DNA of 64,000 nucleotides from contig CAIKZD010000009.1 in the NCBI GenBank assembly GCA_903831805.1, positions 72,786 to 136,785 of the forward strand, given 5' to 3'. Below the pieces are notes generated by a model. That model ran no database searches. It saw nothing but the letters and a program-made list of their open reading frames with translations, and was not told the origin of the DNA. This document shows positions 1-45,570 of the stretch, in pieces (positions within the stretch are counted from its first letter, which is position 1; the number at the start of each line of letters is the position of its first letter). The position numbers and the translations under genes are program-made. The stretch comes from an uncultured bacterium (GTDB lineage: Bacteria > Patescibacteriota > Minisyncoccia > Moranbacterales > UBA2206).

Positions 1-946
<946 letters not shown>

Positions 947-1376: not shown

Positions 1377-2051
1377 ATGGAAACAACCTTTATTCCGGGG
1401 GAAGCGATCAAGTTTGGTTGGGGGAAGATGAAAAAACATTTTTGGTTCTTCGTGGGCCTTTTGATTTTGGCTTGGCTGATCCAAGTTGTGCCTTCGGGCA
1501 TTGCCAGCATTTTCAAAGAAAAGATGTTTTTCATCTATGTACTCTTTCTAGTGGCCGCTTGGATCATCCAGATTATCGTCAAGATGGGCTTGATTAAGAT
1601 TACGCTGGATGTAGTGGATAAGGATGAAGCCAATCTGAACACACTATTTTCCTGCACTCAACTGCTGGGTAAATTTATTCTAGGCTCAATCATCTATTGC
1701 CTGATCGTCATAGCTGGGCTGATTTTATTCATCATCCCCGGCATTATTTGGGCCATTAAATATCAGTTCTTCGCCTACTTAATCATTGATAAGAACATGG
1801 CTCCAATGGAAGCCATCAAAAAAAGTGGCGAGATGACGGCTGGAAATAAGGGCAAATTGTTCTGGTTAGGCATATTATTGGCTTTGATCAACATTGTTGG
1901 CGCCTTGTGTTTGTTTATTGGACTGCTGGCGACTATTCCGGCAACGATGGTGGCGATGGCCTATGTTTATCGCAAATTGGCAGGGGAGTTAGAGACTCCT
2001 GCGCCAACTGAATTGCCGGAAAGTGTAGTTACTGGTCAAGTGGCGAATTAA
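1377..2051 (+). CDS. polytopic membrane protein (possibly DUF975-like), hypothetical
   Basis: 224 aa ORF with multiple hydrophobic helices; no catalytic motif recognised. Confidence 0.5.
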   Translation: METTFIPGEAIKFGWGKMKKHFWFFVGLLILAWLIQVVPSGIASIFKEKMFFIYVLFLVAAWIIQIIVKMGLIKITLDVVDKDEANLNTLFSCTQLLGKFILGSIIYCLIVIAGLILFIIPGIIWAIKYQFFAYLIIDKNMAPMEAIKKSGEMTAGNKGKLFWLGILLALINIVGALCLFIGLLATIPATMVAMAYVYRKLAGELETPAPTELPESVVTGQVAN

Positions 2052-2114
2052 TTTAGTTTATTGTGTAGCTATTCGGAGGTACAACCTCGGGGACAAAAGA
2101 GGTTGGACCGCATA

Positions 2115-2145
2115 AAAAACCCTTCGCTAATGCGAAGGGTTTTTG
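2115..2145. terminator. bidirectional rho-independent terminator between convergent genes
   Basis: AAAAAACCCTTCGC-taat-GCGAAGGGTTTTT; A-tract upstream, T-tract downstream. Confidence 0.65.
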
Positions 2146-2167
2146 AATGAGAAATATGTTCGGATAT

Positions 2168-3199
2168 TTATTCCATCTTACTATTTTCTCCGAACCATTT
2201 TTTATACAAGATGTCATAACTGCCGTTGTCGCGCAATTTGAGGATGGCTAGGTTGATTTTTTCTTTTAGGGGGCTGCCGGTCGGCATGGCTATGCCGTAG
2301 GTTTGCCGTTCAAAAATATCGCCGATCACGTCAAAGAAGCGAGTCTCGCCACTGCTCATGTGATGGAGGAGATTGGGCGCGTCAAAAACGATGGCTTCCA
2401 CTTTTTCATTCTTTAATTTTTTGAAAGCGTTTTCAATTTTTTCCACGGCCACAATTTTGGCACCGAGCCGGTCGAGAGTGTTGATGCTGGTGGAATGTCT
2501 GACCGTGGCCACTTTTTTGCCGCCTAGGTCTTTGTAGCTGCTGATGTTGCCTCTGATTTTTTTCAAGGTGATGATGGAACTGAGTTCGGCGATGAAGATG
2601 CCGAAAAAGATATAGCCGATAAGAATGATGAAGACATCAAAGAGCTTGCCGATCCAAAGGTGCGGGATATAATCGCCGTAGCCAACGGTGCTGATGGTCA
2701 CAAGTACCATCCAAGCTGCTTCAAAAATGCCGGGAAAATAGGCCGAAGAGAAAGCGCCGCCACTCCGGCCCTCGATGAGCCAGATGGCGTTGCCTAAGAT
2801 AAAAACTAAAATTAGAATGGCCAGGAGGGTGGTGAGAATTTTTTTGTAGCCGCTTTTGAAAAATTCCTTGATGGTTTTCAAAACTTTGACGCGGCCGGAA
2901 TTTTTCCCTGTTAGGACTAGAAGTCCGGAATCCAAGGTATAATGGGAAAAGTCGAATATTTTTTCGCGGTCTTCATTGATGGATATGCCGGCCACCGCCA
3001 AGTCTGTTTGGCCATTTTCCAATGCAGCAAAGATGTCTTTCAATCTGACTTCCTTATAGGTATATTCCAAGTCAATTTCTCTGGCAATCATTTCCCAAAG
3101 CTCTATTTCAAAACCTGCAAATTTTCCGTCAGTTTTCATCACCAGTGGCGGAAAAGGACTGACCAGCACTTCCACAGTTTTATTATTTTTGTTTTTCAT
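2168..3199 (-). CDS. GluR0-like ion channel: potassium-channel pore (TVGYGD) inserted between the two lobes of a family-3 solute-binding domain
   Basis: 343 aa. N-terminal SBP_bac_3-like lobe, then M1-pore helix-selectivity filter TISTVGYGDYIP-M2, then second SBP lobe (GGKKVATV...SGETRFFDV...YGIAMP). No N-terminal hydrophobic signal peptide visible. Confidence 0.7.
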   Translation of the reverse strand: MKNKNNKTVEVLVSPFPPLVMKTDGKFAGFEIELWEMIAREIDLEYTYKEVRLKDIFAALENGQTDLAVAGISINEDREKIFDFSHYTLDSGLLVLTGKNSGRVKVLKTIKEFFKSGYKKILTTLLAILILVFILGNAIWLIEGRSGGAFSSAYFPGIFEAAWMVLVTISTVGYGDYIPHLWIGKLFDVFIILIGYIFFGIFIAELSSIITLKKIRGNISSYKDLGGKKVATVRHSTSINTLDRLGAKIVAVEKIENAFKKLKNEKVEAIVFDAPNLLHHMSSGETRFFDVIGDIFERQTYGIAMPTGSPLKEKINLAILKLRDNGSYDILYKKWFGENSKME

Positions 3200-3305
3200 G
3201 CTTTAAATATATCAAGAACTATACATTCTTGCAATAACTGAAATAGCCCAAGCCGATTTTTGTATTACCCGTACTAAGAGCATGTAAAAACTCGCAAGGG
3301 GGTCG

Positions 3306-3650
3306 ATGAGTTTTAAGATAAAAATAGTTCTTTATAATCAACTTAATTCCAATTTTATGAAATACTTAAAGAATGCATCTTTAAGGGGAAAATTCATAAT
3401 GGCTGCGTCTGTTCTGGCGCTGGTGGCCGGCTTTAGTTTTTTGAGCAGTGGCACCGCCCTAGCCAATGACGAAGATGGCCGCACAGTGATGATCGGTGGC
3501 AAGGAATATGACGTGATGCATGATGGTCAAGGGCCGAATATTATGGTGAATGGCCAAACATATTATCTGAACACTATGGACGATGATAATTCGGTAATGG
3601 TCGGCACACATTCCTATATGGTCCAAGATGACAACGACGCCGATGACTAA
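3306..3650 (+). CDS. small secreted acidic protein, hypothetical
   Basis: Signal peptide MAASVLALVAGFSFLSSGTALA; D/N-rich C-terminus. The true start may be internal (MKYLKN at about 3357 or MAAS at about 3390). Confidence 0.45.
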   Translation: MSFKIKIVLYNQLNSNFMKYLKNASLRGKFIMAASVLALVAGFSFLSSGTALANDEDGRTVMIGGKEYDVMHDGQGPNIMVNGQTYYLNTMDDDNSVMVGTHSYMVQDDNDADD

Positions 3651-3748
3651 ATTTCCCCCAAAGTAAGCTTCAAAAACTTCTACATTTAGAAGTTTTTGAG
3701 CGCGGAAGTTTTTTTTATTTTTACAAATATTGGGTAATTTTTAAATAA

Positions 3749-4798
3749 ATGCTATATTATAGGCATATGAAAACTAGCTACAAAACTTATTTTTTTCTGG
3801 CCACTCTTATTGGACTGACCGTCTTGTCCTTTTTCATTATTAAAGGTTTTTTGATTCCATTTATCCTGGCGTTGATTCTGGTACATCTTTTTAATCCAGT
3901 GTATAAATTTTTACTGGGGCATACCGGCAGAGAAAGTTTTAGTTCTGTTCTGACTTGTCTTATTGTGGCATTCATCATTATCATTCCAGTGTTAATTGTT
4001 TTAGTCTTGGCTACGTCTGAAGTCCAAGCGGTAGTCACGCATCTGGCGGGGAGTGCGGGGCTGCTTAATGGCATAATTGGTCTCACCGATAAACTAGTGG
4101 CACTGCCATTTTTCAAAGCGATTGATTTTGAAAAAGTAGTCAATCAGGAATCGCTCTTGTCCGCTTCAAAAAGTTTTTCCCAAGGCGTTTTGTTTGTGTT
4201 GCAAGGGGCGTATACTGGACTTTTGCGGTTTGTCTTTACGCTGTTCATTATGTTTTTCTCTCTATTTTATATGTTCATCGACGGAGAAATTTTTCTTAAA
4301 AAAATGATTGAGCTTATTCCGTTGCAAAAAAAATATGACAAATCATTACTACACAGTTTGAATTCCATGGTCCGCGCCACCATTAAAGGCACGTTGGTAA
4401 TGGCTGTTTTGCAAGGGATTATTGGCAGTTTACTTTTTTGGGCGACCGGGGTGTTCTCACCACTTTTTTTCGGCATCCTGATGGCAATTTTTTCGGTCAT
4501 CCCGCCGGTCGGGTCGGGTTTGATTTGGCTGCCGATTGGAATCACGATGATCATGCTGGGCCATCTGACGTCCGGCATCTTGATTATTCTCACTGGTGTT
4601 CTTGTGATTGGCACGATGGACAATATTTTGCGCTCGAGACTGGTGGGCAAAGATACCGAGATGCACCCACTTTTGATTTTATTTTCGACCCTAGGTGGAT
4701 TAGCTTTCTTTGGCATCTCCGGTTTCATCGTCGGACCAATTGTGGTTTCTCTCTTAGTTTCTCTATGGGATATTTATGTCTTAGAGATGGAAGCGTAA
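3749..4798 (+). CDS. AI-2E family transporter (UPF0118/PerM-like)
   Basis: 349 aa, 8 predicted TM helices, family-typical organisation and C-terminal GxxxGPxV-like segment. Confidence 0.7.
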   Translation: MLYYRHMKTSYKTYFFLATLIGLTVLSFFIIKGFLIPFILALILVHLFNPVYKFLLGHTGRESFSSVLTCLIVAFIIIIPVLIVLVLATSEVQAVVTHLAGSAGLLNGIIGLTDKLVALPFFKAIDFEKVVNQESLLSASKSFSQGVLFVLQGAYTGLLRFVFTLFIMFFSLFYMFIDGEIFLKKMIELIPLQKKYDKSLLHSLNSMVRATIKGTLVMAVLQGIIGSLLFWATGVFSPLFFGILMAIFSVIPPVGSGLIWLPIGITMIMLGHLTSGILIILTGVLVIGTMDNILRSRLVGKDTEMHPLLILFSTLGGLAFFGISGFIVGPIVVSLLVSLWDIYVLEMEA

Positions 4799-4820
4799 GC
4801 GAAATCTAAAAAATAAATCA

Positions 4821-4845
4821 AAAAACACCTGCGGGTGTTTTTTGA
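4821..4845. terminator. bidirectional terminator
   Basis: AAAAAACACCTGC-GG-GTGTTTTTTG between convergent genes. Confidence 0.6.
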
Positions 4846-4886
4846 TGGGCAGCTAAGACCCAGAGCCTCACCCTGGAAGGTTATTG

Positions 4887-5849
4887 CTATTTCGCGAAAG
4901 AATATTTGATAGAATCATTTTTCAAATCAATGACACCGTAGGCGGCGAAATAGCCGGTGCGGGTTAGGGCTGCTTGGCCGGCATAGGCAATGCCGTCATA
5001 AGTTTTTTGCCACGGCACATGCCAATGCCCGGACAAAACCAATTTGACGTTGCCGCTAGCGTGCAAAATGTTTTCCAATTCCGCGTATCTCGGCAACAGA
5101 TCGCCGACATAGGGAAAATTGCTGCCGGTGAAATCATGAATATTGTTCGATGCCAGCCCGCCGTCAAAAAGGGGAATGTGCATGGTGATGATGACCGACT
5201 TATCTGTCTTTAGGGCGTCCTTCAACCAATCCAATTGCGGCTGATCGATGGCGCCTTGATAATCGCCATTGCTTTCCACGTCGTCCAAGACAATGATGCG
5301 CGTTTGGCCATAATCGGTGTAATAGTAGGCACTGCCGCTCACGCCGAGAATGCCCATAACTTTGGTATTGTCATGGTTGCCGCGCACCCAGATGACACGC
5401 ATATGTTTTTCCTCAGTGATGTGTTCCAAAACGCGCGCATAATTATCATCGCCGGAATTAGTGTTGTCACCGGTGGCAATGACAGTGTCGATGCCTTGAC
5501 GCTGGAGTGTGTCAAAAACGGCGGGCAAGTAGTCGCTGAATCGCCGCGGAAACATCAAGCCGCTGTTGATGTCGCGCCGCTTAAATCTATCCGCGTGGAT
5601 ATCGGAAACCCAGCCAATCTTTTCATATGCTTTCGCAAATCCGACTTGCCGAAAAAATGGCACATCTCTTTTCAAGAATTGATTGGCTTTTTGCGCCAGG
5701 AGAGAATCTTGCGGCTGGCCGATTTCCAGCGAGTACTGACCGTCAATGGCGTATAGCCTGAGGAAAAACAAGGCGAAAAAAATTGCAACGAGGCCTAAAA
5801 AAAAGCCACCTCCAATTTTCCATTTTGAATATTTTTTCATATTAAGCAT
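4887..5849 (-). CDS. membrane-anchored calcineurin-like metallophosphoesterase
   Basis: GDxHG...GDNTNSGDD...GNHD...GHWH motifs; N-terminal TM helix. Confidence 0.75.
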   Translation of the reverse strand: MLNMKKYSKWKIGGGFFLGLVAIFFALFFLRLYAIDGQYSLEIGQPQDSLLAQKANQFLKRDVPFFRQVGFAKAYEKIGWVSDIHADRFKRRDINSGLMFPRRFSDYLPAVFDTLQRQGIDTVIATGDNTNSGDDNYARVLEHITEEKHMRVIWVRGNHDNTKVMGILGVSGSAYYYTDYGQTRIIVLDDVESNGDYQGAIDQPQLDWLKDALKTDKSVIITMHIPLFDGGLASNNIHDFTGSNFPYVGDLLPRYAELENILHASGNVKLVLSGHWHVPWQKTYDGIAYAGQAALTRTGYFAAYGVIDLKNDSIKYSFAK

Positions 5850-5914
5850 AGCTTTAGTTTAATGGGGAAATGAGTTTTTGTAAAACAAAAGAACGTTGAC
5901 AGTCAGGCCGCCGC

Positions 5915-5943
5915 TTGACATAATTTAAAATTTCTGCTAATAT
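5915..5943 (+). promoter_or_regulatory. sigma70-type promoter (TTGACA-17nt-TAATAT)
   Basis: TTGACA at 5915-5920, 17-nt spacer, TAATAT at 5938-5943, about 35 nt upstream of the ATG at 5979. Confidence 0.5.
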
Positions 5944-5978
5944 ACTTTGTTAATAGCTAACTAATTGAGAAAAAACAT

Positions 5979-6755
5979 ATGACTACGGAAAGAATGCTTA
6001 AATTAGCCAAAAATCATCTAAAAACCGCTTTGCTTTTCGGCCTCTTGGCCGGCGCGCTGTCTTTTTTGGTTTTGGTGACGACGCAAAAAAGTTTTCGCGG
6101 AAGTGCGGACATTCTGATGTCACAGAACCAAGCGGGAGCGACGGACTATTACGCTTTGTCCCAAGGCGCTAACTATTTGACCAACATTCTTTCTCAGTCG
6201 ATCTACAGTGAAAAATTCTTGGAAGAAGTGGACGCCACCGGGAAAATTTCCACTGGTTTTCTGGGCAATGATAACGCAACGCGTCTCAAGGAGTGGCAAC
6301 GAGTGGTGCATGTGAAAAATAATTCCAGTGTTGGCATCATGAACATCCAAGTTTTCGGAGACACACAATTTCAAACCGATAAACTTTCAGAGGCCGTTAT
6401 CGATGTGCTGGTGAATCACAATTCTTTCTTCTTGGGTCAAGAGCAAAATGTGAACGTGCGAATTTTGTCCGGACCGATTGTGGAAAAGAATCCGTCCATC
6501 GCGCAGATCGTGGCCGCCGCCGTGGGTGGGTTTGCAGTTGGGATGCTTTTCTTCCTCTTGTTTGTCATCTATCGCGCCGAATTTTTCCCGCAAGAAGAAT
6601 TGGCGGACGAGGAACTTTCCATCAAGATGGATCAGGTGGAAAAACAGATTTTCCCACTGGAAAATTTCCCGCCAGAACCATCGATTTCCGACGAGGACTA
6701 TTTAGCGGCGGACAGTGATTATTGGAAGGATAAATTGGAAAACAAGAAAAATTAA
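5979..6755 (+). CDS. Wzz-like polysaccharide chain-length determinant protein
   Basis: 258 aa; TM helix near N-terminus and a second near the C-terminus flanking a hydrophilic domain; Wzz-type N-terminal sequence pattern. Confidence 0.5.
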   Translation: MTTERMLKLAKNHLKTALLFGLLAGALSFLVLVTTQKSFRGSADILMSQNQAGATDYYALSQGANYLTNILSQSIYSEKFLEEVDATGKISTGFLGNDNATRLKEWQRVVHVKNNSSVGIMNIQVFGDTQFQTDKLSEAVIDVLVNHNSFFLGQEQNVNVRILSGPIVEKNPSIAQIVAAAVGGFAVGMLFFLLFVIYRAEFFPQEELADEELSIKMDQVEKQIFPLENFPPEPSISDEDYLAADSDYWKDKLENKKN

Positions 6756-6910
6756 AATTACTTTATGTCTAATCCCATTTCTCGTGAAAGGGGATTAGCA
6801 TAAGGTTGTTGAGGATAGTAATTTGACAACTGAATATATAAAATTATGTCCGCGCAATGAATTGTGCGGATTACGAATTGCAAAAAACAAAAAACAATTG
6901 GAGAAGAAAA

Positions 6911-7873
6911 ATGAACTCGACAAGAAGAGCGTATCTTAAGGTGATAGGTAGTGCAGCTCTGCTTTTGCTATCCGGTTGCGGCGCGAAAGTATTAGAGATG
7001 CAAAAGGTCAACTTCGGGGCGAAAATGCCAGATAGTGGCGAAACTTTAGCGAGCAAATCAATGTTGGTTCTGCCTGACAGATCGTTAGGCTTGGAACCGA
7101 CGGAAGATGTCCGTCGAGGAAATACCTCGAATTTTTTGGAGTTTTTCCCGATGCGACTGTATGCCGGGGAATGGTTTCCAGGCAGGTTGCGTTGGGACAC
7201 TTGGACTATCGCTGCGGACGGTACAGAGCACTTTGGTCAGATAATTTTTTCCGGAATGCATCTCTCGGGACGCTATTCTGGAATTAATGTCATCGATGGC
7301 CAAGTGCGGTCTGGGACAACAGCCGTTCTGTCTACTGCGGTGGATTTTATCTATAGCCCAGTAGGCAAGGAGTTGGCGGTGGAACGCGAGAAGTTTATAA
7401 GCGATCCCCAGTATCGCCGGGAGAAAATCACGGCAGTGAATACGGCTAAGAATGGGGAAGTGATCAACCTTAGCTCGCTGACAAGAAATGATGATTTCAA
7501 ATGGTATGTCAAAGTGTGGAATCAGTTGAAAACCCCGGATGGATATTTGCTCGCGCCGTACGGATTGGAAGAAGTGGCAAAAATTCGCGGCATTAATCCG
7601 CAATATAGCTATTTCGAAAAGTTGGTCGGGACGGGCAAGTTTGCCGTTACTCCGACTGCCGATCCAGCGTCCTTGGCGATTGTCAACTCCATCGGAATCA
7701 TGATGGATATGATAAACGCGGCGGATGCGCCGTCGACTGGGTGGGATTTCGGTTCGCAAATCAGTCGCAGACAGGCAGGCTTTGTGACAGAATATGCCAT
7801 GCGCCTAGCTGAGAAAGAAATTCAAAAAAGAGATGATGCTAACGCTAGATTGTTAGCAAAGAAACCAAAATAA
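6911..7873 (+). CDS. lipoprotein, hypothetical
   Basis: Start chosen at MNSTRRAYLKVIGSAALLLLSGC (lipobox LSGC); the ORF-track start at 6857 lies upstream. Confidence 0.5.
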   Translation: MNSTRRAYLKVIGSAALLLLSGCGAKVLEMQKVNFGAKMPDSGETLASKSMLVLPDRSLGLEPTEDVRRGNTSNFLEFFPMRLYAGEWFPGRLRWDTWTIAADGTEHFGQIIFSGMHLSGRYSGINVIDGQVRSGTTAVLSTAVDFIYSPVGKELAVEREKFISDPQYRREKITAVNTAKNGEVINLSSLTRNDDFKWYVKVWNQLKTPDGYLLAPYGLEEVAKIRGINPQYSYFEKLVGTGKFAVTPTADPASLAIVNSIGIMMDMINAADAPSTGWDFGSQISRRQAGFVTEYAMRLAEKEIQKRDDANARLLAKKPK

Positions 7874-30339: not shown

Positions 30340-32358
30340 TTACGTGATAGAGATCGGGTCGATATCGATTATCCAGCCGGTACCCAATTTTTTGAGTTCA
30401 ACTATTAATTTTTCGGGAATAAATTTGCTTTTACATTTGATGATTATTTGTCTTCTGAATCGGCCTCTGATTTTCGGGACGAAAGCCTCTTGCGCTTCGG
30501 TCACTTTGGTATCCGGTATGCTTTGCATGACAGTGGAAACTTTTTCCGTTTCAACTTCAGTTTTCCGGGCATCATAATCCTGAAAAACCAATTTAACGAG
30601 ACGTCCGAAGGGTGGAAAGGAGAGGGCTTTTCTTTCGGCTATTTCAAACTGAAAAAAAGCTTCATAATTTCGTTCCGCACTGAACCTGATTGATTTGTTT
30701 TCCGGTTGATAAGTCTGGATCACCACACTGCCGGGAAACTTCGCGCCGGGTCTGGCCACGCGGCCGGAGACTTGCACGATATTTTCATAAAACTTTTCTC
30801 CAGCCGAAAAATCAGGGATAGAAAGAGCATTATCCGTATCTATTATACCAATCAACGCGACATTCGGCAAATCCCAGCCCTTGCTGATCATTTGCGTCCC
30901 GATCAAAATATCGATCTGGCGCGCGGAAAATTCTTGGTATATTTTGGCTTGATACGCCGCTTCTTTGGCGACCTGACTATCGAGGCGCGCCACGCGAGCG
31001 CTCGGGAAAAGATTTTTGATTTCTTTTTCCACTTTCTGTGTGCCCAGTCCTACATTTTCAAAAATAATGCCCTTACATTTCGAACATTGCGGTGTGATGG
31101 ACGTTTTATAGGCACAATGCAAACAGCGGTAGTGACCCTTTTGATCATAAGCCAGCGAACGGTCGCATTTCGGGCATTTTAAAACAGTCTTACAGCTCTT
31201 GCAAACCGAAAAGCTGCTCATGCCCTGGCGATTGATGAAGAGAATCGTCTGCTGGTCATATTTCAGCGCGTAAGCAATTTCACTTTTTAGCTTTTTACTT
31301 ATACATGAGTAATTCTTCGCCCAGCGCTCTTTTTTCATGTCGACGATGACGGTTTGTGGAGAATTTGTATTGCCCCCTCCCTTGTAATCAGGGGAGGGCT
31401 GGGGAGGGGTTGTTAGGTGGGGCAAATCCAAAAGATTCATCTCTTTTTCATTTTTTGCTCGCCAATATGTTTCCACTGCCGGCGTAGCGCTTCCGCGCAC
31501 GATCGGACATTTATTAATCTCCGCCAACTTTTCTGCTACGGTGCGCGCATCATAACGTGGATTCATATCCCATTGTTTGTAGGACATATCCTGCTCTTCA
31601 TCGATAATGATGAGTCCCATTTTTTGGAACGGGGCAAACACCGCCATGCGTGTGCCGATAATGATTTTGGCCTGGCCGGATTTAACACGTTGCCAATAGC
31701 CATAGAACTGCCCCTTGGTGATATTACTACTGAGCATTACGATTTCTTCTGGCGGAAAATATTGTCCATAACGCTCCAGTGCTTGCGGCGTCAAAGTTTT
31801 TTCCGGCACTAGAATCAAAAATTGCGCATCAGGCTTTTTCTTTTTAATGGCTAAAATTGAATGAATATATACCTCAGTCTTACCTGATCCGGCCGGACCG
31901 AAAAGCAAGTATTTTGTATTTTGTTTTGCAATTTTATTTACGGCTTCTTGTTGCTCTTCCGTGAGGACAATACTCACGCCCCCTCTCCTGTACTCGGGAG
32001 GGGGTTGGGGAGAGGGTCTGCGGGTTTTCGTCCGCGCCGGCACAAAACTTTTCATCACAATCCCAAGCGGGGATATATAGTAATCTGAAATAAACTTAGC
32101 CAACTCAATCTGATCTTCCGTCAAAAAATCTTCTTCCAAAACTTCTTCGATTTTTTTTAATTCAATATTACCCAATCTTTCAAAATCTTTCCGCACCCCC
32201 AAAACAATTCCTTCAACCGTGCGGCGGAAAAGGGGAATGGACACGAGAGTGCCAACTGACAATTTCTTTTCTGATAGATAGGAAAAAGACTGACTGCCGC
32301 TCATGGGCAATTTGGTCAGCGGCACGATGTCGAGAATGAATTTTTTGGATTTAGGCAT
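30340..32358 (-). CDS. priA: primosomal protein N' (PriA helicase) with two in-frame palindromic insertions
   Basis: Walker A GPAGSGKTEV, DEAH-like IIDEEQD, Cys4-Cys4 zinc-binding region (CKSCKT...CPKCD...CLHC...CSKC). The insertions encode PSPQPPPEYRRGG and PPQPSPDYKGGGN. Confidence 0.95.
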   Translation of the reverse strand: MPKSKKFILDIVPLTKLPMSGSQSFSYLSEKKLSVGTLVSIPLFRRTVEGIVLGVRKDFERLGNIELKKIEEVLEEDFLTEDQIELAKFISDYYISPLGIVMKSFVPARTKTRRPSPQPPPEYRRGGVSIVLTEEQQEAVNKIAKQNTKYLLFGPAGSGKTEVYIHSILAIKKKKPDAQFLILVPEKTLTPQALERYGQYFPPEEIVMLSSNITKGQFYGYWQRVKSGQAKIIIGTRMAVFAPFQKMGLIIIDEEQDMSYKQWDMNPRYDARTVAEKLAEINKCPIVRGSATPAVETYWRAKNEKEMNLLDLPHLTTPPQPSPDYKGGGNTNSPQTVIVDMKKERWAKNYSCISKKLKSEIAYALKYDQQTILFINRQGMSSFSVCKSCKTVLKCPKCDRSLAYDQKGHYRCLHCAYKTSITPQCSKCKGIIFENVGLGTQKVEKEIKNLFPSARVARLDSQVAKEAAYQAKIYQEFSARQIDILIGTQMISKGWDLPNVALIGIIDTDNALSIPDFSAGEKFYENIVQVSGRVARPGAKFPGSVVIQTYQPENKSIRFSAERNYEAFFQFEIAERKALSFPPFGRLVKLVFQDYDARKTEVETEKVSTVMQSIPDTKVTEAQEAFVPKIRGRFRRQIIIKCKSKFIPEKLIVELKKLGTGWIIDIDPISIT
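31373..31409. repeat. family E GC-rich palindromic element, copy 2 (in-frame in priA)
   Basis: CCCCCTCCCTTGTAATCAGGGGAGGGCTGGGGAGGGG. Confidence 0.85.
31978..32017. repeat. family E GC-rich palindromic element, copy 3 (in-frame in priA)
   Basis: CGCCCCCTCTCCTGTACTCGGGAGGGGGTTGGGGAGAGGG. Confidence 0.85.
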
Positions 32359-32612
32359 GTGTCCATTGTATCATTTTGAGCTATTTAAACAATTGACATT
32401 ATTCTGGTGATTTTTTTATGTTGAACCTTTACATGCAGTCTCAATATGCTACCATGCCAACAAGGAGGGGCGCAGAAGAAGCAGGAGATTGCCTATTTAT
32501 TAGGACTTGCCGGATGATGAAGCTATGCGGCAACAACCCGAAAACCATCTGGGTGGCTATAAATACAAGCGAAATCACTTGCGCACGCTCATCCTTTCTC
32601 GTTGTTCCGCTG

Positions 32613-32684
32613 AGAGATATAGTTTAGTTTGGTCAAAACACGGCCTGTCACGCCTTGCCGCAGGTTCGAACCCTGCTACCTCTC
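32613..32684 (+). tRNA. degenerate tRNA-like gene (anticodon loop CTGTCAC, GTC/Asp-like)
   Basis: Perfect T-arm GCAGG-TTCGAAC-CCTGC; anticodon loop identical to bacterial tRNA-Asp; acceptor AGAGATA/TACCTCT has one mismatch; anticodon stem has one mismatch; variable loop only 3 nt; no encoded CCA. Followed by its own terminator. Confidence 0.35.
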
Positions 32685-32693
32685 AGTTTCCCC

Positions 32694-32767: not shown

Positions 32768-33664
32768 ATGGAAATAGTAAAAAACCTTTATAAAATGGAA
32801 GAACTAAAAATAATTCTAAATTCTTGGCAGTTTAATCTGTCGTTGTCGCTTATCCTTCTTATTGTGTTTATGCAGTCATATAAGCTGGCTGTTAAGGAAG
32901 TTGAAAAAGATGGAGTAGCGACCATTATCCTTCAGGTAGTGGCGGGGCTTAGTATTCTTTTTTTGTTGCCATTCTTTGCGTTCACTTTCCCAAATAATAC
33001 TGCAGCATATCTTTTTACTTTACTGGCGATAATATTTTATACCCTAAACGACAGGATTCAAACAACTGTCAGGAAGAATCTTGATGTCTCCGTATATTCA
33101 ATCCTGGACCAAATAGCCAGAGTTTTTTTAGTGGTTTATGGGATTATTATTTTCAAGGAACCGCTAGTCGCCGCCAAATTGCTTGGCGCCGGGTTGATCT
33201 TGGCCGGGAATGTTTTCTTATTTTATCGTAAAGGAAAATTAAAAATCAATAGGTACGTAGTGCTAAATGTTTTGGCGACTTTTCTGCTCGCCACAGCGAC
33301 CATAATAGATATTGATATCTCAAAACAATTCAATCTGCCTTTCTATATCATGATAACTTTGATTATTCCGGCCTTATTCATATATCTTGTGGAGAGACAT
33401 TCCTCGAAAGAGATTCTGAAAGAATTCAATTCTAAAAGAAGAAAATATTATCTAATTACCGGAATTTCTTGGGGCGTTCTAATACTCGCCATAATCAGAG
33501 CCTTCCAAACTTCAGAAGTAACCTTCATCGCGCCGCTCTTGGCTACCTCGGTCCTACTGAATGTTTTTGTAGCCTCGATAATTCACAAGGAAAAGAGTAA
33601 TTTAACGAGAAAAATAATAGCTGCGGTCATTGTTGTTTTGGGAGTTTTTGTGATGACTCAGTAA
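32768..33664 (+). CDS. 10-TM DMT/EamA-like membrane transporter, hypothetical
   Basis: Start placed at MEIVKNLYKMEEL, downstream of the tRNA-like gene and terminator (ORF-track start at 32507 reads through them); two 5-TM halves of about 299 aa total. Confidence 0.4.
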   Translation: MEIVKNLYKMEELKIILNSWQFNLSLSLILLIVFMQSYKLAVKEVEKDGVATIILQVVAGLSILFLLPFFAFTFPNNTAAYLFTLLAIIFYTLNDRIQTTVRKNLDVSVYSILDQIARVFLVVYGIIIFKEPLVAAKLLGAGLILAGNVFLFYRKGKLKINRYVVLNVLATFLLATATIIDIDISKQFNLPFYIMITLIIPALFIYLVERHSSKEILKEFNSKRRKYYLITGISWGVLILAIIRAFQTSEVTFIAPLLATSVLLNVFVASIIHKEKSNLTRKIIAAVIVVLGVFVMTQ

Positions 33665-33949
33665 ATTGGCACTTCCTAGTGCACTTGTGGCCGTACCTGC
33701 GCCGATAGTATGGCTTGTATTTTGATAATTTTAACCGTGTCGAATTCGATACCTTTGATCATTAAGTGAAATTCTAATGTTATGGGATTCCGTAACATTA
33801 GAATGGTATATTTTTTATCGAATTTTTTCCGACTTTTTTCTCGCGGAGTTGTCGGAGGCAGTTAAAAACAATGTAAGTATGCAGGTACGTACCTCCCTAC
33901 CCACCCACCCAGATACCCACCTCCGATGCAGTAAAATAATTTTAATAAT

Positions 33950-34519
33950 ATGAAAACTATAAAAAGTAATGTTGGTCCAATTAGCTTTGAACATTTTGCA
34001 AAGACTTATTTGTTGATGGCAAAAATCGCATTATCCTATACGGGAGAAGGGAAGGATAATATTAGTACTGACGATAAATTCAGACTTAATAGTGGGCTAA
34101 TTTTTATTCCAGTAATTTTTTGCATAAGACACAGCGTAGAAGTTTTTCTTAAGAGTGTTGCTATCCGGGTTGACGACAAATATTATAAAACGCATGATTT
34201 GAAAGAGCTTGAAAAAATTCTTTCTCGCATAAAAATACCAGCTGAAGATGTGCGCAAGGGAATTAAAATAGTTGATAAGTATACACACTATAAATTTCCA
34301 AAAAAGATTGTGCAGTTTCTTTCAGAAGAAAATAATATAAAATTTTATGATAAAAGAAATGAAGTCTTTCGCTTTCCCGAGAATGATATAAGGCTAGAAA
34401 TAATGGGAGAAAACTTGAAGAATTTAAAGGCGTCCGACTTTCAAGAAGATATTGAAAATATCAATTCTATTTTTAGTAAGTATTCTTTCTGGAGTCAGAT
34501 TGAAAAGCATAAAAAGTAA
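33950..34519 (+). CDS. hypothetical protein (AT-rich gene in compositional islet)
   Basis: 189 aa, no recognisable motif; about 33% GC, clearly lower than flanking genes. Confidence 0.4.
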   Translation: MKTIKSNVGPISFEHFAKTYLLMAKIALSYTGEGKDNISTDDKFRLNSGLIFIPVIFCIRHSVEVFLKSVAIRVDDKYYKTHDLKELEKILSRIKIPAEDVRKGIKIVDKYTHYKFPKKIVQFLSEENNIKFYDKRNEVFRFPENDIRLEIMGENLKNLKASDFQEDIENINSIFSKYSFWSQIEKHKK

Positions 34520-34674
34520 AGTAGGATATACCTTAATGTTTTTCCACAACCAACCTCAAGTAAGCTGGTTTTTATTTAATCTTGAATTTTCGGGTCGGGA
34601 GCGGAAATTTAAAAAGGCGAACTCCCGCATTGCGGATGTTCGCCCCTTCTCGTGGCTCTGGCAAGAAAAAGTTT

Positions 34675-35352
34675 TTAAGCGGTAAGTCTGCCCAATTCAG
34701 CGTCGATGGCGTAAAAAACGTTCTCGACATAATTGGTAATCGTCGTACCTTTGGGTCGCCCAGTCGGGTCATCTTTGACAGACTCATCGGCTCGGCGGAG
34801 GATCTCCTGAACTTGTTCATCATTAAGCTTGATGAGTCCGAGATAGTAATATTTTCCAAGCTCAAGCGTCAAATCCTCCCATTCCTTGAGACCGGAGCAG
34901 GCGCCGTAGCAGGCGGCAATAGTGGGAAGGCCTTTAATGGATATGAGCTGGAAAGTTATTTCAGCTGATCCGCCCCATTTTCCATTTTTCGGGTCTCTGC
35001 TTTCATGAGAACAGCTGTGACCCATGTTTCGGCCTGTTCGGGCTGTTTTCTCTTGACAGAAAATTTTGCAATTTTCTCCGAAGGCTTCATCGGGAAAGCT
35101 GTCTCCAGCTTTATTCATAAATCCGAAATGTCCATGGGGCATGTAGCATCCGAAATTGCACCAGACGGCCTTGCGCTCCGGCACCATAGTGAGATTATTT
35201 TCGAGCATGAGCGTCAGCACCCTGTCCGTAGCTCCCAGAAAAATATCTTCCAGTTGCTCAGCTTCTCCGTTGTAGATTGCTTGGTACACTTTTGGATGTA
35301 TACGCTCTTTTAGGGTAATGGGTTCAAGATCTTCAATTCGGTTAGTTTTCAC
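34675..35352 (-). CDS. Cys/His-rich hypothetical protein (possible metal-binding enzyme)
   Basis: 225 aa; motifs WCNFGCYMPHGHFG, GENCKIFC, GHSCSHE, ACYGACSG; no family assignable by eye. Confidence 0.4.
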   Translation of the reverse strand: MKTNRIEDLEPITLKERIHPKVYQAIYNGEAEQLEDIFLGATDRVLTLMLENNLTMVPERKAVWCNFGCYMPHGHFGFMNKAGDSFPDEAFGENCKIFCQEKTARTGRNMGHSCSHESRDPKNGKWGGSAEITFQLISIKGLPTIAACYGACSGLKEWEDLTLELGKYYYLGLIKLNDEQVQEILRRADESVKDDPTGRPKGTTITNYVENVFYAIDAELGRLTA

Positions 35353-35533
35353 GGCATTCTCCTTTTTCTTGTTTTTTTATTGGGTAGGTACTGCGTTGAT
35401 TGAGCAACAGGATATTATTGCATGTAAAGCTTTTTCTGTCAATTTTTTCATGGTTGAATTCTAGGAAGTATCGCTGTTTTGTATTTCTTCTATTGCAATT
35501 GCCAAAACCCTGAAAAACAGCTAGACTTCTTTT

Positions 35534-36076
35534 ATGAAACGAAAAATTTTTATCAGTTTGAACATTCCTGAACAAGACCGCAAAAGGTTGGCACGCTTGG
35601 CCGAAAAGTGGCATGATTTACCGGTCAAATGGACGCGCGCAGCCAATTTGCACATCACTTTGGCTTTTTTAGGTTTCGTGCTGGAAACTGATTTGCCGGA
35701 AATTTGCCAAAAAGTGGCTGAGGCCGCCCAAAAAAACACTATTTTTGATCTGGAATTTGATGAAATCAGCCTTTTCCCAAGTGCGGATGAACCGCGGGCT
35801 GTGGCGCTCATCGGCCGACCCAGCGAAGAATTGAAAAATTTAGTCAATTCATTGGAAGATACTTTAGACATTGCTTATGCCCCTAGAAAATCTTTTCGCG
35901 CACATGTGACACTCGGACGGATCCGCAAAAACAAATGGGCGGAATTGGAAACCGAACCGCGCATCTTGGAAAAATTTGCCATCAGCTTGCCGGTGGACGC
36001 CGTGGACATCATGGCCAGTGACTTTGACGGCGGGGAAGGGGAGTATGCCGTGCTGGAAAGCTGCCCACTGGTATAA
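35534..36076 (+). CDS. thpR: RNA 2',3'-cyclic phosphodiesterase (2H family, LigT/ThpR)
   Basis: Two H-x-T/S-x motifs: HITLAFLG and HVTLGRI. Confidence 0.8.
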   Translation: MKRKIFISLNIPEQDRKRLARLAEKWHDLPVKWTRAANLHITLAFLGFVLETDLPEICQKVAEAAQKNTIFDLEFDEISLFPSADEPRAVALIGRPSEELKNLVNSLEDTLDIAYAPRKSFRAHVTLGRIRKNKWAELETEPRILEKFAISLPVDAVDIMASDFDGGEGEYAVLESCPLV

Positions 36077-45290: not shown

Positions 45291-45475
45291 TGGAGACCCT
45301 GGAAGGATTTGAACCTCCGACACATTTCATCGAATCTATCTGTTATTTTCTTTGGATTTATCGCGCGATTCAATCCAAACAGAATTACAGATACTTCAAT
45401 AAAACTCGCCTACGCGGTACTTTGCTTGGCGTCCGGATTATCATTCCGGTGCTCTACCGATTGAGCTACAGGGTC
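45291..45475 (-). tRNA. tRNA-Ile (anticodon GAT) gene interrupted by a 109-nt insertion between anticodon arm and T-arm
   Basis: 5' part GACCCTG-TA-GCTCAATCGGTAGAGC-A-CCGGA-ATGATAA-TCCGG (45475..45433); 3' part GTGTC-GGAGG-TTCAAAT-CCTTC-CAGGGTC-T-CCA (45323..45291). Acceptor halves are perfectly complementary; the insert spans 45324..45432. Confidence 0.7.
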
Positions 45476-45496: not shown

Positions 45497-45570
45497 TGGC
45501 TGGAGGACCAGGATTCGAACCTGGGATAATGGGGTCAGAGCCCATCGCCTTACCGCTTGGCCACCCTCCA
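45497..45570 (-). tRNA. tRNA-Gln (anticodon CTG)
   Basis: TGGAGGG-TG-GCCAAGCGGTAAGGC-G-ATGGG-CTCTGAC-CCCAT-TATC-CCAGG-TTCGAAT-CCTGG-TCCTCCA-G-CCA; close to E. coli tRNA-Gln. Confidence 0.9.

Follow-up and report, generated by a model that had tools for sequence, protein, structure and literature searches.

A two-gene interval between an EamA transporter gene and thpR in a Moranbacterales genome: an AT-rich orphan beside a member of a rare, possibly DUF336-type family

The stretch of DNA considered here, which we call the window, comprises 64,000 nucleotides (nt) of contig CAIKZD010000009.1 from an uncultured bacterium of the Moranbacterales, with a content of guanine and cytosine (GC) of about 43.5%. 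Between the gene of an EamA-family transporter and thpR, the window carries two convergent genes, here termed A and B (Table 1), which lie exactly where an earlier interpretation of the letters by eye, the sequence-only reading, had placed them. That reading saw in the pair a compositionally anomalous islet with palindromic flanks and suspected a horizontally acquired module, possibly of toxin/immunity, defence or nucleic-acid-modifying function. The explanation that we favour, and that we consider reasonably probable as a whole, is that A and B are two independent transcription units which the history of the genome has brought together by accident. The genes under study have homologues labelled Parcubacteria, Paceibacterota or Moraniibacteriota.

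Table 1. Features of the interval and its neighbourhood in the window, and the paralogues of gene B in a second contig (aa, amino acids)
Feature	Position	Strand	Remarks
def and priA	30340-32358	-	neighbour genes
tRNA-Asp (GUC)	32612-32685	+	ARAGORN; Rfam tRNA 45.4 bits; between PriA and EamA genes
EamA-family transporter gene, 289 aa as called in public contigs	32795-33664	+	Pfam EamA E 7.9e-11; gene calls in L010/L011
Intrinsic-terminator-like hairpin of the EamA transcript	33771-33818	+	15-bp arms including one G.U pair, 4-nt loop, U-run after
Perfect 12-bp palindrome AGGTACGTACCT	33883-33894		sequence unique in window
C-rich tract	33895-33924		minus strand = GGGTGGGTGGGTAGGG-type G-runs; 26 nt upstream of gene A
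Gene A, 189 aa	33950-34519	+	AT-rich orphan
Intrinsic terminator of gene B	34611-34644	-	GGCGAAC...GUUCGCC stem, inner CCGC/GCGG stem, then UUUUU; starts 33 nt past stop
Gene B, 225 aa	34675-35352	-	rare family without annotation, mainly Parcubacteria-type
Shine-Dalgarno sequence GGAGA of B	35358-35362	-	5 nt before GTG start; N-terminus conserved in homologues
Promoter-like site of B	35414-35442	-	TTGACA, 17 nt, TG-n-AATAAT; 11/12 matches, extended -10; best in region
thpR (2H phosphoesterase)	35534-36076	+	Pfam LigT_PEase E 1.4e-22; divergent from B; syntenic in L002; context only
B paralogue in L016, short type, 174 aa	922-1446	-	contig DYDB01000001.1
B paralogue in L016, intermediate type, 204 aa	1471-2085	-	contig DYDB01000001.1
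B paralogue in L016, full type, 225 aa	5926-6603	+	contig DYDB01000001.1

The two genes differ clearly in base composition. Among the 53 non-overlapping open reading frames (ORFs) of at least 120 aa in the window (mean GC 44.1%, standard deviation 3.4), gene A has the lowest GC content, namely 30.5% (28.4% at third codon positions; z = -4.0), and its status as an AT-rich outlier therefore stands, with the earlier value of about 33% corrected downwards. In contrast, gene B has 47.3% GC (z = +1.0) and is indistinguishable from thpR (47.7%). Since only A deviates, the compositional anomaly spans one gene and not the two that had been proposed. In 11 loci spanning 34-53% GC, the GC content of B lies at or somewhat above that of the host locus, and the single distant relative of A, P0015, has 23.9% GC within a contig of 43.8%. 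As a matter of caution, the GC dip at this locus marks a single orphan gene beside an old resident, not a two-gene island.

Gene B possesses expression signals of its own (Table 1), and a 32-nt stretch which overlaps its terminator recurs with 84% identity downstream of B in a related species (locus L002). In all 12 distinct foreign loci examined (including L001, L002, L005, L007 and L015-L021), B occurs without A, and the relative of A was found without B at its locus. Searching other genomes for the two genes side by side, a check put forward by the sequence-only reading, revealed no such pair outside this species among the loci examined. PADLOC returned no match at E <= 1 for either protein, and no relative of B is present in the phage, plasmid and viral collections. 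These results bear directly on the proposal that A and B form an acquired toxin/immunity or defence module, in which A would serve as a HEPN toxin and B would neutralise it or act as a sensor. The adjacency of the genes, the variability of the interval between relatives and the HEPN-like match of A, which is described below and is the only family match of A, fit such a module, as does the fact that both proteins are without matches above the curated cut-offs of four libraries (Pfam, NCBIfam, PADLOC and PHROGs), which bears out the earlier impression that neither can be annotated. The proposal is nevertheless largely refuted, and we regard it as highly improbable, because the pair does not co-occur outside this species, the genes are convergent with separate expression signals, the defence and mobile-element collections are silent, and B is host-like in GC, neighbour-like in divergence and syntenic. 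Of the acquired module, then, the foreign appearance of A survives, whereas neither the acquisition of B nor the module itself does, and nothing is added to the catalogue of defence systems.

The surroundings of gene B in other genomes illustrate its history. In L002, B is flanked by Fmt-Def-PriA and, at its other end, by thpR-WecG, and the identity between the proteins of the window and those of L002 amounts to 60% for B, compared with 67% for Def, 56% for PriA, 57% for WecG and 41% for ThpR. The identity of B is thus close to that of its housekeeping neighbours, which indicates that B diverged in step with them. Host-like GC, synteny, the lack of relatives in mobile collections and the silence of PADLOC make B a poor fit for a recently acquired module, and, as judged from these comparisons, gene B is an old, vertically inherited resident.

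The interval around B is far less stable than B itself. In L002, the region from PriA to thpR (1665-7701) holds, in addition to B, an HD-domain gene, a gene for a PIF1-type helicase, one for a zinc-ribbon protein and three genes without a Pfam match (E <= 1); by another count, it comprises a 193-aa gene, B, three more genes without assignment, PIF1 and HD. This interval contains no tRNA-Asp, no EamA gene and no A, and the EamA gene, without a tblastn match in L002, is lineage-specific at its position in the window. The 193-aa gene, which occupies the position of A, was considered as a relative of A and proved unrelated by comparison; it has no Pfam match. Conversely, the island genes of L002 have left no remnant in the window. 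In L005, thpR adjoins priA, and B is found at a distance of 4.5 kb. The interval between priA and thpR thus behaves as a variable hot spot, of which B is the only constant when the window is compared with L002. It resembles tRNA-associated islets in that its content differs between relatives and includes one strong GC outlier; it differs from them in that no integrase, att-like direct repeat or flanking inverted repeats are evident in the interval of the window, and in that its constant element, B, is not foreign. In a second clade (L015, L019, L020 and L021), B is located between the infA-rpsM-rpsK-rpsD-rpoA-rplQ cluster and a gene of about 760 aa followed by an ftsA-like gene. Other members of the family lie near a fused PyrK-PyrD dihydroorotate dehydrogenase gene (L007, L016 and L017) or adjoin gltX (L018).

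The family to which B belongs is clean and very rare, and neither Pfam nor NCBIfam has a model for it. A word-indexed search of 5.8 billion proteins yielded 13 homologues, all of them unnamed and without Pfam domains, and when 1.84 billion representatives were searched exhaustively with a profile, 104 of them matched, 23 below 1e-30, with a tail of proteins of 150-190 aa which share a common core motif. Among 185,579 species genomes, the family occurs in four. B itself has no match in Pfam (E <= 1), NCBIfam, PADLOC or PHROGs, and searches of the PDB sequences with B, with A and with the alignments of B and A with their relatives, using phmmer or hmmsearch, produced noise only (designed BCL binders, troponin C and NuoI). 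In an alignment of 74 sequences, G83, E101, K102, R105, S115, R119, G127, G128, S153, G154 and E157 are nearly invariant, and K102, S153 and D160 are conserved in 68, 67 and 66 sequences, respectively. A nearly invariant loop, H-x2-S-x-(Q/E)-S-R-D-P, is specific to the family, and the C-terminal helical extension (residues 176-220, approximately) is strongly conserved, with the pattern DEQVQEILRRADESV..DP.GRPEGMTIT.YV. AlphaFold2 models B with a predicted local distance difference test (pLDDT) score of 93.4 and a predicted template modelling score of 0.92, as a strand, two helices, a hairpin, a long helix, a short helix, a second hairpin, a helix and two further helices, the core consisting of four strands and four helices.

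The description of B as a Cys/His-rich protein holds to the extent that seven Cys and five His make up 5.3% of the residues, which is a mild enrichment; the residues of the motifs that had been singled out are mostly variable. Among the 13 close homologues, C65 is kept in 5, C69 in 2, H73 in 2, H75 in 4, C148 in 5 and C152 in 6. C114, H116 and H112 are better conserved in this close family (12, 11 and 9 of 13, respectively), and all three fade in the wider family, where C114 is found in 24 and H116 in 19 of the 74 sequences. The only invariant Cys or His is C95, and this in the close family only (50 of 74 in the wider family). The sequence-only reading had entertained, with little conviction, a deaminase of the cytidine deaminase (CDA) fold. 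That B is such an enzyme, or a Zn or Fe-S protein which uses its Cys/His motifs, might be argued from the spaced Cys and His of this particular sequence and from the appearance of APOBEC3H among the Foldseek matches. We give the idea an almost negligible probability: a Zn site or Fe-S cluster is rejected on account of the mostly variable Cys and His, B contains no HxE or PCxxC motif and the family conserves no HxE or CxxC, the Pfam scans of B and of the 74 members disclosed no deaminase family, and the APOBEC rows are noise (E 0.4-0.6, the lower value going with a TM score of 0.17; TM 0.17-0.19; root-mean-square deviation at least 14 A).

A different relationship was suggested by the order of motifs in B, namely a Lys in the long helix, a GG which opens the second hairpin, an SG which ends it, and an acidic residue thereafter, an order reminiscent of the DUF336 (GlcG/HbpS-like) family, PF03928. 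This family includes EfgA (6BWS), HbpS (3FPV), the C-terminal domain of PduO (5CX7), OrfY (2A2L) and NahX (9JTH). PF03928 matches two of the 74 members of the B family, with a best E-value of 8.2e-4, and is the only Pfam family that recurs among them. A simple hidden Markov model (HMM) from an earlier version of a DUF336 template, with four PDB entries, matches many members of the B family at the GG...GVSG..D block, P0036 with 18 bits. The later DUF336 template consists of 11 sequences, i.e. E. coli GlcG, four other GlcG and the aligned parts of six PDB entries taken from HMMER output; its diversity stems from the PDB alignments, since the homologue search provided only GlcG sequences of at least 67% identity. 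When the profile of the 74 B sequences was aligned with this template by hhalign, the local score was 24.6 (E 1.9e-3) and the global score 23.0 (E 2.2e-4), with a probability of 20%; 124 columns were aligned, and the entire DUF336 domain fell on residues 36-174 of B.

Controls gave lower scores throughout. Of 120 shuffled templates (60 shuffled by column and 60 by block), none scored as high as the true one, and the global score has a z above 9. The global null amounts to 0.6 +/- 1.1 for column and 1.4 +/- 2.4 for block shuffles, with a maximum of 13.3, the local null has means of 10.5 and 12.8 and a maximum of 21.3, and the reversed template scores 3.7 and 10.5. The hhalign score rose as the diversity of the template rose; alignments of B with E. 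coli GlcG alone or with a shallow GlcG-only alignment were not significant, and a GlcG-only HMM detected nothing. In a reciprocal check, DUF336 sequences ranked at the top among about 600 decoy ORFs searched with the B profile. Moreover, K57, S114 and D121 of EfgA, which line its formaldehyde pocket (PMC8153426), fall on K102, S153 and D160 of B in the alignment. In EfgA, four helices flank an antiparallel sheet (PMC8153426). B and DUF336 proteins share the element order helix, hairpin, helix, short helix, hairpin, helix, and their motifs are collinear: the Lys belongs to the second helix, GG opens strand 3, SG closes strand 4, and the acidic residue is situated one turn after the last core helix begins. 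Both are small, stand-alone, cytoplasmic proteins. On these grounds, we hold with moderate confidence that B probably contains a far-diverged DUF336-type domain.

Several observations weigh against this assignment. A Foldseek search of the PDB with the B model gave no DUF336 chain among the 50 rows listed, none of which was below E 0.09, although the PDB holds at least seven DUF336 entries; B itself is not matched by PF03928; the template is small (Neff, the effective number of sequences, 3.3), and some of its sequences were taken from HMMER output; and the HHalign probability is 14-20%. Because of this probability and the missing Foldseek match, the assignment is not settled. In addition, B differs from DUF336 proteins in that it has neither the D-x-G-G hairpin nor the R-x-D motif, and in that it has its own SRDP-containing loop, E101, R105 and about 50 conserved residues of C-terminal helical extension. 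The alternative is that B represents a new fold or family unrelated to DUF336, for instance an enzyme which acts on an anionic substrate by means of E101/K102/R105/S115/R119, the resemblance being convergent or due to chance. This would account for the missing Foldseek matches in the PDB and also in BFVD, despite a pLDDT of 93, for the low HHalign probability, and for the invariant SxxSRDP loop and the C-terminal extension, which are family-specific and absent from DUF336. It would leave unexplained why the collinear global alignment covers the whole domain and scores far above shuffled controls, why PF03928 and the home-made DUF336 HMM repeatedly match members at the same block, why DUF336 sequences surpass some 600 decoys, and why the order of secondary-structure elements agrees and the pocket residues of EfgA align with conserved residues of B; we therefore consider it unlikely, albeit by no means negligible.

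If the DUF336 assignment is correct, its known members offer an analogy for the working of B. Proteins of this type are small, form oligomers and bind or sense ligands: HbpS deals with haem, haem and cobalamin are bound by the C-terminal domain of PduO, and the sensing of formaldehyde by EfgA leads to translation arrest, while GlcG is without a known role (PMC8153426). Gene B stands alone, with a sigma-70-like promoter, a Shine-Dalgarno sequence, a GTG start and an intrinsic terminator, and it encodes a cytoplasmic protein. The core of this protein, as a very divergent DUF336 domain, would comprise an N-terminal helix, a beta-hairpin, a helix with E101-K102-x2-R105, the H-x2-S-x-(Q/E)-S-R-D-P loop, a second hairpin from W-G127-G128 to S153-G154 and a helix which starts with E157-x2-D160. 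By analogy, B would bind a small ligand in a predicted polar pocket formed by K102, S153 and D160, as EfgA does with the equivalent residues, and a further Arg, Ser and Glu, all conserved, would make this pocket wider or adapt it to another use, possibly for a larger or anionic metabolite. The role of the protein would then be that of a sensor or a carrier, and it would probably form oligomers, with the conserved C-terminal helices as an output or interaction surface. No conserved gene partner that points to the ligand or the output was found in the loci examined.

A bolder extension of this scheme regards the B family, with its approximately 100 relatives, as an offshoot of DUF336 found mainly in bacteria of the candidate phyla radiation and Parcubacteria type, which, as EfgA does, would sense a small metabolite, reactive or anionic, and curb translation or growth in response. 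We consider this extension quite improbable as it stands. The placement of B beside infA-rpsM-rpsK-rpsD-rpoA, gltX, def-fmt and rplJ-rplL fits a link from metabolite to translation, but proximity to translation genes is weak evidence in genomes that are so small. Should it be true, it would reveal a previously unseen checkpoint between metabolites and translation in ultra-small symbiotic bacteria. Irrespective of the outcome, a definition of the B family would clear about 100 "hypothetical proteins" from candidate-phyla genomes and, if the homology holds, extend the sequence space of DUF336, a sensor superfamily that is itself poorly understood.

As a separate observation, the L016 contig (a metagenome-assembled genome contig labelled Micavibrio sp.) carries three diverged paralogues of the B superfamily within 6 kb (Table 1), arranged around the fused PyrK-PyrD dihydroorotate dehydrogenase gene, and in L017 (Moraniibacteriota) the intermediate type adjoins the same PyrK-PyrD gene. 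The cluster may point to hetero-oligomers or to a connection with nucleotide metabolism, and the presence of the three paralogues around one dihydroorotate dehydrogenase gene also fits the bolder extension given above.

Gene A presents the opposite picture of a protein nearly without relatives, which shows that the accessory gene pool of these bacteria is thinly sampled. Among 5.8 billion proteins, P0015 is its one distant homologue, with 37% identity and the conserved blocks HS.E..LK, THD, KIVDKY and FRFPEN; further relatives were found neither by tblastn of phages and plasmids nor in pattern scans of IMG/VR nor in a metagenome scan, and PADLOC and PHROGs are negative. The sequence of gene A itself is identical on 12 contigs from several samples. 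The Pfam HEPN family PF05168 matches residues 55-113 of A over profile positions 27-85, with an E-value of 2.2e-4 across 24,736 models and 21.8 bits. HEPN domains are typical of toxins and defence proteins. The gene for P0015 adjoins a RhuM-family gene, and RhuM-family neighbourhoods are typical of mobile or defence regions. Both A and P0015 are AT-rich outliers in their own contigs, which fits horizontal spread.

On balance, we lean towards the view that gene A encodes a HEPN-like protein, and that it was acquired and is solitary. It would be a separate later arrival with a HEPN-like helical core, which came with or settled next to the lineage-specific segment of tRNA-Asp and the EamA gene, and it may be a solitary nucleic-acid-binding or toxin-like protein of the HEPN type, without a conserved Rx4-6H motif or a partner gene. 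Its PF05168 match, predicted helicity and nature as an AT-rich orphan, as well as the RhuM-family neighbour of its relative, are reminiscent of pairs of HEPN proteins with nucleotidyltransferases (MNT) and of solitary HEPN defence proteins. Unlike the HEPN-MNT systems, A has no adjacent MNT or other partner, and unlike minimal HEPN proteins it is long, at 189 aa.

The case for this view of gene A is qualified by a number of findings. The HEPN score lies 0.2 bits under the Pfam gathering cut-off of 22.0, Pfam finds no HEPN match in P0015, the Rx4-6H motif is not conserved in the alignment of the two proteins, and a profile search of the PDB sequences with this alignment returned no HEPN match. 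AlphaFold2 gave an unusable model from the two sequences (pLDDT 36.5), mainly helical at low confidence. No integrase-like ORF is evident among the ORFs between 30000 and 39000, of which only four proteins were scanned with Pfam, there is no att repeat, and tRNA-Asp, which lies 1.3 kb upstream, is not duplicated; moreover, low GC by itself is no proof that A was acquired. It is accordingly possible, if less favoured, that A is not a HEPN protein but a lineage-restricted orphan of other function or a decaying remnant, its low GC a result of relaxed selection. The sub-cut-off score without a counterpart in the relative and the lack of an AlphaFold2 model speak for this, as does the upstream region, in which neither a Shine-Dalgarno sequence nor a consensus promoter was found. 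Against this alternative stand an ORF of 570 nt in DNA of 30% GC, which is very improbable by chance because stop codons are AT-rich, the identical sequence in 12 contigs from different samples, the blocks conserved in a relative of 37% identity, which indicate purifying selection, and the HEPN E-value.

The palindromic flanks ascribed to the pair turn out to be one-sided, since the hairpin, the 12-bp palindrome and the C-rich tract all lie upstream of A and nothing comparable is present on the thpR side; they comprise a terminator and a chance palindrome and are not the ends of an element. The hairpin at 33771-33804, which lies about 107 nt past the EamA stop codon, is real, with a folding energy of -19.8 kcal/mol (z = -4.7) that none of 200 shuffled sequences attains, but its arms are not perfect as had been stated, owing to the G.U pair. 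The U-run which follows and the presence of about 10 comparably long hairpins in the window identify it as the intrinsic terminator of the EamA gene, and as one of an ordinary kind. The 12-bp palindrome is perfect, as described, and belongs to a class of which the window contains 15 examples, with 16.2 +/- 4.2 expected by chance, so that no function is inferred for AGGTACGTACCT. The C-rich tract is likewise present as described and unique, CCCACCCACCCA having a single exact occurrence in the window; no structure is predicted for its plus strand, and Rfam has no match. No significant direct or inverted repeats bracket the A/B pair, no att-like repeat derived from a tRNA was detected, and an Rfam search of the intergenic regions at E <= 1 returned nothing credible. 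A side observation concerns the two 25-nt ends of gene A (33951-33975 and 34501-34525, plus strand), which form direct repeats, TGAAAACTATAAAAAGTAATGTTGG and TGAAAAGCATAAAAAGTAAAGTAGG, of 84% identity; by our own rough estimate, made without a tool, this is about the best pair to be expected by chance in AT-rich DNA.

The remainder of the window provides the setting. Beyond thpR follow a gene for a WecG-type glycosyltransferase, a gene for a small membrane protein and gltX, and the window also carries two to three tRNA genes and housekeeping genes. Upstream of tRNA-Asp, the stretch at 32394-32611 (plus strand) contains a TTGACA-type promoter-like hexamer, followed by about 185 nt which are relatively GC-rich and apparently non-coding up to the tRNA; it has no Rfam match at E <= 1 and may represent either a long leader of the tRNA or a small RNA that has escaped recognition. 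The window opens with the 3' part of a 16S rRNA gene (1-944, plus strand; model positions 596-1533), and no 23S rRNA gene follows anywhere in the 64 kb, so that the rRNA genes appear to be unlinked. Finally, a tRNA gene at 45294-45475 (minus strand; Rfam 53.1 bits, no ARAGORN call), whose anticodon loop AUGAUAA gives GAU and thus presumably Ile, directly adjoins tRNA-Gln (45497-45570). Its variable region is extended by an insert of about 110 nt, placed between model positions 44 and 45. An insertion of such size and position is unusual in a bacterial tRNA.

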